DNA from: Escherichia phage vB_EcoM_IME537
DNA: 64,000 bases
Reading direction: 5' to 3' (one strand)
Sequence record: NC_054921.1
Part shown: one piece after another, positions 60,762 through 62,101 of the stretch
Layout of the letters: each line of letters opens with the position of its first letter
Numbering within the stretch: the stretch's first letter is position 1
Program-made: the position numbers and the translations under genes
The notes under the pieces: model-generated
Told to the model about the DNA's origin: nothing
Database searches by the model: none
Seen by the model: only the letters and a program-made list of their open reading frames with translations

Positions 60762-61541
60762 TTAATTAAAAATATACACTTCATCAGTTCCATTCTTTTC
60801 TTTGGAATGATATATGTTAAAGACGTATTTTTTATTAAGATGCTTAACATTGTATTTTTTAGACCATTCTTTAAGAAGAGTGTTTTCCTTTCCGTGATGC
60901 TCTAAAACATTCGACAGTCCAAATTTTATTCCTCTGTCATTTAAAGAGTCCAAAAGATTTAAAAGGTCTTTTTCTTCTTCTTCTGACCAAAATTTATTAT
61001 AATCAGCAACTGTTATAAGATACGGAGGATCTACATATACAAAATCGCCGTCTAGAATTTTGACATCTTTAAAATGCAATGAACTAAAGATTATTTTATC
61101 ACAATTTTGTTTAAAGTGATTAAAGCGTTTTTCACTATTTTTGTTTATAGTTCTTTTTCCAAACGGAGTAGTAAAATTTCCTTTATCGTTTATACGAATC
61201 ATATTACTAAACCCGTGAAAATGAAGAACATAAAGTAAAAGAGGATCTCTAGTTTTATTATAATCTTCACGTAATTTCAAAAACTCTTCTTTTGATGTTT
61301 TTGATAGTTTGTATTGCTTTATTACTTTTAATACGTCATCCCATGATATATCAATAAGACATTTATACATTTCAATAATTGGTGTTTGAATATCATTGGC
61401 CAATACAGGACCATTGACATTCAAGGACACTGATAAACCTCCACAAAATAAATCCACGAATCTGTCATATTTTGGAAAATGAGGCTTAAGTTCAGGTAAT
61501 AATGATTGTTTATTACCTGTATACGCGATAGCTCCTAGCAT
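60762..61541 (-). CDS. dam: DNA adenine methyltransferase
   Basis: 259 aa; motifs DLFCGG and DPPY. Confidence 0.95.
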
Positions 61542-62101
61542 TATATTCTCTCATTTATTGCAGCAAAAAACGAATTATATAATTCTTCATCATATGTATT
61601 TGATAGTAATACTAACACGTTTTGTGATTTAGCATATTCATTAAACCTTGCTTGGATGGTTGGATTATCAGTAAATGATTCTCTTTTTGTCCATTTATTA
61701 CGTGGATAATATCCGCATGGCAAAAAATCTAATATCATCAATGACACAGGGTTTTCAGTTTTTGTGTATTCTTTTAATTTCTCTTTATCTTCTAAATATA
61801 TTCCAACCGAATCAATAGCTGTACCTCCACCAACTTGGTGTTTAATTTCAATTATATGCTTTTTACCGTTGCGAGAAATAACAATATCAAATCTTCTAGT
61901 ACGCTTCTTAGTTATAAAATTAGAACAAAACAAATTATTTGATTTTTCAGTATCATCGGTTAAAACCATTTTTTCTTGATAACTAACTGAACAATCAGTG
62001 AAATATTCTTTTACTTTATTAAGTATGAAATTTTCAACTACGGCAGATATTTTATATGAATCTCCGTTTAAAGCCATTTCATGCACAATTTTATTAATCA
62101 T
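61541..62101 (-). CDS. hypothetical protein, 186 aa, with candidate PD-(D/E)xK nuclease motif, coupled to dam
   Basis: [20 protein letters not shown] (D...ExK); stop shares a base with dam ATG (TAATG). Confidence 0.55.

Follow-up and report, generated by a model that had tools for sequence, protein, structure and literature searches.

A putative PD-(D/E)xK endonuclease gene adjoining dam in Escherichia phage vB_EcoM_IME537 and a possible GATC-directed restriction-modification pair of T4-type phages

Organization of the locus

The DNA analysed here (64,000 nucleotides of Escherichia phage vB_EcoM_IME537, record NC_054921.1, referred to below as the window) is part of a Tequatrovirus genome, and the subject of this report is a 186-aa open reading frame (ORF) within it together with the adjoining gene dam, in the gene order 61 - ORF - dam - HNH endonuclease - 56. 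The product of dam is a D12-class N6-adenine DNA methyltransferase (Dam) with 97% identity to T4 Dam. An earlier reading of the letters alone (the sequence-only reading) had placed the ORF immediately upstream of dam, with one base common to the ORF stop codon and the dam start codon (TAATG), and both points were confirmed at the positions listed in Table 1. As judged from its sequence, the TAATG junction implies translational coupling of the two genes.

A Shine-Dalgarno (SD) sequence and an early promoter had also been proposed for the ORF. The former is present, and an early-promoter-like site upstream of the ORF is kept in T2 and absent in T4 through a deletion; the promoter scan as a whole, on the other hand, was not above chance (9 sites versus 12.7 expected from shuffles), and the site taken alone is to be read as a consensus match only. 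A terminator-like hairpin stands between this promoter site and gene 61.

Table 1. Positions in the window of the ORF, dam and the associated features.
Feature	Position	Strand	Basis or remark
186-aa ORF, ATG start, TAA stop	61541..62101	-	PD-(D/E)xK, Type II restriction-endonuclease-like (putative); PHROG 8706; T2 orthologue T2_032
dam, 259-aa D12-class N6-adenine DNA methyltransferase	60762..61541	-	PF02086, E 1.4e-50
TAATG junction, one base common to ORF TAA and dam ATG	61543..61539	-	sequence
Catalytic-core block, residues 69-98 (R69, D72, E85-I-K87, H88, Q89, G93-T-A-I-D-S98)	61808..61897	-	invariant in 9 homologues
Codon of D72	61886..61888	-	within catalytic-core block
Codon of E85	61847..61849	-	within catalytic-core block
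Codon of K87	61841..61843	-	within catalytic-core block
Codon of invariant E23, helix 1 (H15-33)	62033..62035	-	usual place of the first acidic residue in PD-(D/E)xK enzymes
SD sequence GAGGA, 8 nt before ORF ATG	62113..62109	-	sequence
Sigma-70/T4-early-like promoter match: (G)TTTACT, 17-nt spacer, TG-extended TATTAT (TGgTATTAT)	62155..62127	-	promoter scan
Segment missing in T4, 540 bp (promoter, SD, codons 1 to ~158)	61625..62164	-	alignment, junction mapping
Terminator-like hairpin and T-run, 3' of gene 61 and 5' of ORF promoter	62226..62207	-	sequence scan
HNH + NUMOD3 homing-endonuclease-like ORF, 216 aa, GTG start, inserted between 56 and dam	60052..60702	-	Pfam
66-aa ORF, hydrophobic, strong SD AAGGAGG	62192..62392	+	profile match, PHROG 2024, E 8.5e-31

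Gene family and previous annotation

The ORF matches PHROG 8706 ("unknown function") over its full length (E 5.7e-116), near-identical full-length copies are encoded in about 150 phage records, and more distant homologues were found at 63, 59, 57, 48, 41, 32 and 29% identity. In pairwise comparisons, the proportion of non-synonymous differences (pN) was well below that of synonymous differences (pS) in all homologue pairs. Because the PHROG match runs end to end and the homologues down to 29% identity have pN below pS, the ORF is taken as a real gene and not as a chance frame.

As judged from the searches made, the family is very small. Among 1.84 billion representative proteins, an exhaustive profile search yielded 11 hits, 8 of which are true members or fragments; a second, word-seeded profile search gave no further members, no relatives were found in 185,579 bacterial and archaeal species (one genome per species), and IMG/VR held just copies of two known phages. 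P0008 (from an earlier search) and P0010 were rejected as chimeric assemblies in which the C-terminus of the ORF is fused to unrelated bacterial proteins, and P0016 (765 aa) was rejected as a tandem-repeat artefact. All of the family contexts that could be read are T4-like phages. The gene is called "hypothetical protein" in nearly all records; the only record seen with the orthologue as "putative restriction endonuclease" is that of phage Shinka (MZ502379, 941..1501), where a note reads "putative DpnII restriction endonuclease". No paper treating the ORF was found in literature searches.

Predicted fold and catalytic residues

The fold was modelled with AlphaFold2 from a 9-sequence alignment, which superseded a single-sequence run with a poor predicted local distance difference test score (pLDDT, 54). 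The resulting model (pLDDT 88.9, predicted template modelling score 0.85) has an alpha-beta-beta-beta-alpha-beta core made up of helix 15-33, strands 38-47, 67-77 and 80-88, helices 95-113 and strand 119-124, and this topology is, in the model, that of a PD-(D/E)xK core. Residues E23, D72, E85 and K87 are invariant in the 9 aligned homologues (29-63% identity); in the model, helix 1 carries E23, strand 2 carries D72 and strand 3 carries E85-x-K87. A strand-2 acid followed by a strand-3 (D/E)xK is the arrangement by which the PD-(D/E)xK superfamily is recognized. In a Foldseek search against PDB and BFVD, PD-(D/E)xK nucleases were among the significant matches; the closest structures were orthodox Type IIP enzymes, and McrC, Can2/Card1, Bax1, RecU and NucC were matched as well.

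The sequence-only reading had proposed a PD-(D/E)xK nuclease from a peptide which corresponds to residues 70-89 and contains D72, E85 and K87, and had named fold prediction among the means of checking it. The model and the Foldseek matches bear the proposal out on the computational side, as do the invariance of the three residues and the following profile matches. The Pfam DpnII profile was matched by 4 of the 9 members (best E 8.3e-5), BanI, PDDEXK_11 and SfsA were matched too, and the PADLOC REase_II profile gave a best E of 5.3e-6. All of these profile matches lie under the curated thresholds, yet all point toward Type II restriction endonucleases. NCBIfam gave noise only, and PDB sequence searches with the single sequence or the family profile gave no match.

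For the comparison with DpnII by hhalign, an R.DpnII sequence was validated with Pfam (E 2.7e-100) and used only to fetch real DpnII-family proteins. Against the alignment of these proteins an E value of 7.7e-4 and a probability of 25% were obtained, E23, D72 and E85 being paired with the invariant E152, D201 and E214 of DpnII, respectively, together with the Gly-rich loop after strand 3. As far as the sequences allow, the ORF is thus regarded as a separate, minimal restriction-enzyme-like family, with a core that faintly resembles that of DpnII. Its product is probably a small, Mg2+-dependent, homodimeric PD-(D/E)xK endonuclease of the Type IIP kind.

Other assignments were also considered and ranked low. 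MutH-type enzymes were not the closest structures, as membership of the MutH/Sau3AI GATC family would require; the free-standing homing endonucleases of T4 (Seg, GIY-YIG; Mob, HNH) gave no Pfam match, and the fold is PD-(D/E)xK. A DpnI-like reading was placed low as well.

Linkage of the ORF to dam

In all of the sequence-distinct lineages examined (9 of 9: the window, P0002, P0004, P0005, P0006, P0009, KPV15, P0011 and P0014), a D12 methylase gene lies directly downstream of the ORF, its start being 0 to 35 nt from the ORF stop and mostly overlapping it. The pair occupies two genome positions: in Tequatrovirus and relatives it is flanked by genes 61 and 56, and in KPV15 (a Klebsiella phage of the genus Jiaodavirus) and contig L005 it adjoins the rII genes. 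Since the linkage is kept at two genome locations, the ORF and dam behave as a two-gene unit. As in a Type II restriction-modification (R-M) system, the putative endonuclease and the methyltransferase are encoded by separate, adjacent and co-inherited genes. The R-M-like pairing with Dam that the sequence-only reading had suggested gains support from this linkage, from the two locations and from the asymmetric loss described below, in which dam is the gene that is kept.

In two metagenomic T4-like contigs, P0011 (L004) and P0014 (L005), the overlap of the ORF and dam is longer (35 and 20 nt, respectively), and the two share 30% identity in the ORF versus 70% in Dam. By such sequence comparison, the ORF appears to evolve much faster than its Dam partner.

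Loss of the ORF in T4 and related phages

The 61-56 interval is found in three states in Tequatrovirus, namely the ORF with dam, dam alone, and neither gene. In EcNP1, RB6, Sf22 and others, which have neither gene, a small antisense ORF is all that separates 61 from 56. T4, RB55, Bas37 and G29 are in the dam-only state, which results from damage to the ORF: Bas37 (KarlGJung) has an internal deletion in the ORF and G29 a frameshift, both with Dam intact, and in T4 just the terminal ~84 nt of the ORF persist upstream of dam. From the alignment, a 540-bp deletion is read as having removed the ORF from T4 and left dam there as an orphan. The sequence-only reading had named no T4 counterpart and had proposed an alignment of the dam-to-61 interval with T4 and T2; this alignment revealed the deletion, which bears out the reading for T4, and showed that the gene is present in T2 as T2_032.

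The T2 gene has an altered C-terminus, with Dam intact. One base of a T-run at codon 179 is missing alike from T2 (L001, 2501..3046) and the T4 remnant (L002, ~2496..2585), and both classical laboratory phages therefore have non-standard alleles of the ORF. As a result, the T2 product is 181 aa long and ends in ...NSFLLQ, with a 13-nt gap to dam and the stop uncoupled. The early promoter P(E)17.40 that is annotated for T4 dam (X01416/L015, 613..641) lies at the deletion junction, within the ORF remnant; T4 dam expression may therefore need a promoter that was created or exposed by the deletion.

Among the phage records, 177 have Dam at >=95% identity and 177 have the ORF or a remnant of it at >=95% identity, and no genome with the ORF and without Dam was seen when the records were compared by totals and not one by one. 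In Type II R-M systems the endonuclease cannot persist without the methylase, and the methylase may persist alone; this agrees with the distribution seen here. Loss of the putative nuclease with retention of the antidote, and never the reverse, is the pattern that an R-M pair would be predicted to leave.

Avoidance of GATC

With a maximal-order Markov model for the expected counts, GATC was the lowest of the 256 tetramers in the window (62 seen versus 219.9 expected; observed-to-expected ratio, O/E, 0.28). The depletion is even over the whole 64 kb and falls equally on the four NGATCN hexamers. Among phages with other gene contents, the O/E was 0.14 in KPV15 (L021, 100001-150000), which has the ORF and dam and in which GATC is the most depleted tetramer; 0.39 in T4 (L018, 60001-110000), which has dam only, with the ORF deleted, and in which GATC is again the most depleted tetramer; 0.48 in EcNP1 (L025), which has neither gene and in which GATC is the second lowest tetramer; and 0.97 and 1.02 in ENT3 (L026) and RB49 (L024), respectively, phages whose sole gene of the pair is an orphan Dam homologue. 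RB49 and ENT3, both T4-like, show no GATC depletion and stand against the two carriers of both genes in a comparison of two lineages versus two, for which differences in cytosine modification are a possible confounder; the depletion in T4 and EcNP1 is weaker than in the carriers. The absence of hydroxymethylcytosine genes in Klebsiella phages KP15 and KP27 (PMC5219037) was not applied to KPV15, as a separate proposed genus ("Kp15virus") is concerned.

Genomes with orthodox Type II R-M systems typically avoid the recognition site of the system, the more so the longer it has been carried, and a trace of this avoidance remains after its loss (PMC4687349, Rusinov et al.). The GATC depletion fits, at the level of genome composition, a long-resident nuclease directed at GATC.

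Neighbouring genes

T2 and T4 lack the HNH/NUMOD3 ORF at the corresponding position; in T4, segF flanks gene 56 on its opposite side, and in IME08 the equivalent place is taken by a MobE-like gene. The antisense 66-aa ORF is situated between gene 61 and the nuclease-like ORF and shares 4 nt with the end of gene 61. Conserved copies occur in T2, T4 and phages with neither the nuclease-like ORF nor dam. The 66-aa ORF is without annotation in the T4 reference AF158101, and it encloses the terminator-like hairpin of the opposite strand.

Proposed function

The explanation preferred here, with confidence and doubt in even measure, is that the ORF and Dam form an orthodox Type II R-M-like cassette of T4-type phages that is directed at GATC. 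It is built on what the sequences and the model show: the fold and the invariant catalytic residues, the obligate linkage of the ORF to dam and its coupling to it, the one-sided pattern of loss and the depletion of GATC. The broader claim, that the ORF product cleaves DNA and that this activity is functionally linked with methylation by Dam, is considered likely. Catalysis, GATC specificity, the block by methylation and the identity of the target are what we infer in the following scheme. Early transcription from the promoter of the ORF would give one mRNA for both proteins, and ribosomes ending the nuclease would reinitiate on dam at TAATG, by which the amounts of the two proteins would be tied. 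Dam would methylate GATC on the replicating DNA of the phage itself, and unmethylated GATC, or a site containing GATC, would be cut by the nuclease, which like MunI is probably a homodimer. Enterobacterial hosts are Dam+ and their chromosome is already Dam-methylated; because of this, the host chromosome is an unlikely target. Likely targets would be the unmethylated DNA of co-infecting phages, including relatives that lack the cassette, and the cassette would make dam indispensable to its carrier and may be a self-maintaining selfish element.

Several points weigh against this explanation. Since the hosts are Dam+, host DNA would be no substrate and the selective benefit is not evident. Most Type II enzymes are blocked by the glucosyl-hydroxymethylcytosine that is present in T-even DNA, and self-protection by Dam might therefore be unneeded. 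The dam mutants of T2 and T4 are reported to be viable, which fits a working cassette only if the T2 allele with its C-terminal frameshift is inactive or the modified DNA is resistant. The likeness to the GATC-cutting DpnII/MboI family (PF04556) is also incomplete: the ORF scores 16.8 bits versus a cut-off of 23 and covers profile positions 152-235 of 278 only, the N-terminal ~125 residues of DpnII are missing (residue 1 of the ORF corresponds to about residue 124 of DpnII), and the counterpart of K87 in DpnII is an invariant N216. By its score, the missing N-terminal part and this substitution, the ORF therefore falls outside the DpnII family. Because the DpnII-type matches are below threshold, the GATC specificity is drawn from the partner gene and the site avoidance and not from homology, and the avoidance is seen in the small comparison given above. 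GATC is, moreover, avoided also in genomes with methyl-directed (Type IIM) enzymes (PMC4687349).

A bolder version of the proposal was also considered, in which an orthodox Type II R-M system in working order would be carried by many phages of the T-even type. Its nuclease would have evolved to cut GATC even in hydroxymethylcytosine-containing or glucosylated DNA, with Dam as the antidote, and the pair would serve as a weapon and a selfish drive against co-infecting relatives without Dam, forcing a purge of GATC from the whole lineage. This version is regarded as rather unlikely. If it were true, a nuclease active on modified GATC would account for the role of Dam in T2 and T4 and for the extreme GATC depletion of T-even phages, and the effect would have been overlooked since laboratory T4 (deletion) and T2 (C-terminal frameshift) have damaged alleles.

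Alternative explanations

One alternative is a methylation-dependent (Type IIM-like) nuclease, which would cut Dam-methylated, cytosine-containing host DNA and spare the glucosyl-hydroxymethylcytosine DNA of the phage, with Dam making or completing the substrate mark. Such an enzyme would have the same nuclease fold and the same linkage to Dam as an orthodox one, methylated GATC would be an abundant target in Dam+ hosts, and genomes with Type IIM enzymes show the GATC avoidance cited above; it is nonetheless judged improbable. Similarly improbable is a free-standing homing-type endonuclease, analogous to Seg or Mob, that would cut one site in relatives without the cassette and so drive the ORF and dam into the 61-56 interval, with Dam as cargo or as protection of the site. 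An enzyme of a single site would not give a genome-wide depletion of GATC, the nearest structures are orthodox Type IIP enzymes, and the pair is intact at a second, unrelated position beside rII and across 29% identity, which argues for a dependence on Dam and not on a target locus.

The PD-(D/E)xK matches to McrC, Can2/Card1 and the other nucleases listed above would also suit a nuclease, non-specific or structure-specific, that takes part in host DNA degradation, in recombination or in repair and merely shares an operon with dam, a reading which is given slightly less weight than either of the preceding two. Least probable, and by a wide measure doubted, is a catalytically dead relic or a DNA-binding Dam accessory (for example, one modulating the targeting or expression of Dam) with no nuclease activity. 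The gene has been lost repeatedly without visible harm (T4, Bas37, G29), and the likeness to the DpnII family is only partial, as such a relic would have it; the catalytic D, E and K together with E23 are, however, invariant and under purifying selection over a deep divergence, which would not be expected of a dead enzyme.

Significance

In a review of 2025, the in vivo function of T4 Dam was stated to remain "unclear" (PMC12707154). The present results suggest that the ancestral T-even state was a nuclease-methylase cassette, of which about 150 sequenced relatives retain the intact pair and of which T4 dam would be the remainder after a 540-bp deletion, and they suggest that T4 Dam is the leftover half of a phage-borne R-M pair. 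If active, the nuclease would represent a very small new family of restriction enzymes, so far from phages only and possibly acting on hypermodified DNA, it would offer a tangible reason why GATC is so strongly avoided in the genomes that bear the cassette, and R-M systems would in this instance serve virulent phages instead of acting against them.

Comparison with known systems

DpnII and MboI are GATC-specific enzymes of DpnII-type R-M systems and are blocked by Dam methylation. The DpnII/MboI family is the best sequence-profile match of the ORF, through a block of helix, strands 2-3 and Gly-rich loop (RFDxVI...IEx.....GxGx), and its partner methylase is of the same Dam/DpnM kind. Membership of PF04556 was rejected on the gathering threshold and on the N-terminal half (an enzyme of ~288 aa versus 186 aa). 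DpnII-type systems were also sought through plasmid Dam homologues, by which only AlwI- and FokI-type systems and one system without an annotated nuclease were collected. Among the closest known systems is also MunI (PDB 1D02), of the EcoRI-like Type IIP class, with a sequence identity of just 11%. The ORF differs from the Type IIP enzymes in that its gene is found in virulent phages, upstream of and translationally coupled to the methylase gene.

A virus-encoded GATC R-M pair, CviAI, is known from the chlorovirus PBCV-1, in which the early-expressed methylase marks the viral genome (PMC7248222). CviAI (M.CviAI, A581R; endonuclease, A579L) resembles the pair proposed for the ORF and dam in being a virus-encoded Type II system acting on GATC and differs in belonging to a eukaryotic giant virus. 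The CviAI genes are not known to be translationally coupled. T4 Dam is the nearest system on the side of the methylase, being a near-identical partner with the end of the ORF still directly upstream; it differs in being an orphan whose nuclease is gone, whereas the presumed ancestral two-gene state is intact in the phage of the window. The ORF and dam are regarded as a new, phage-restricted variant of the Type II R-M pair, with a putative nuclease.
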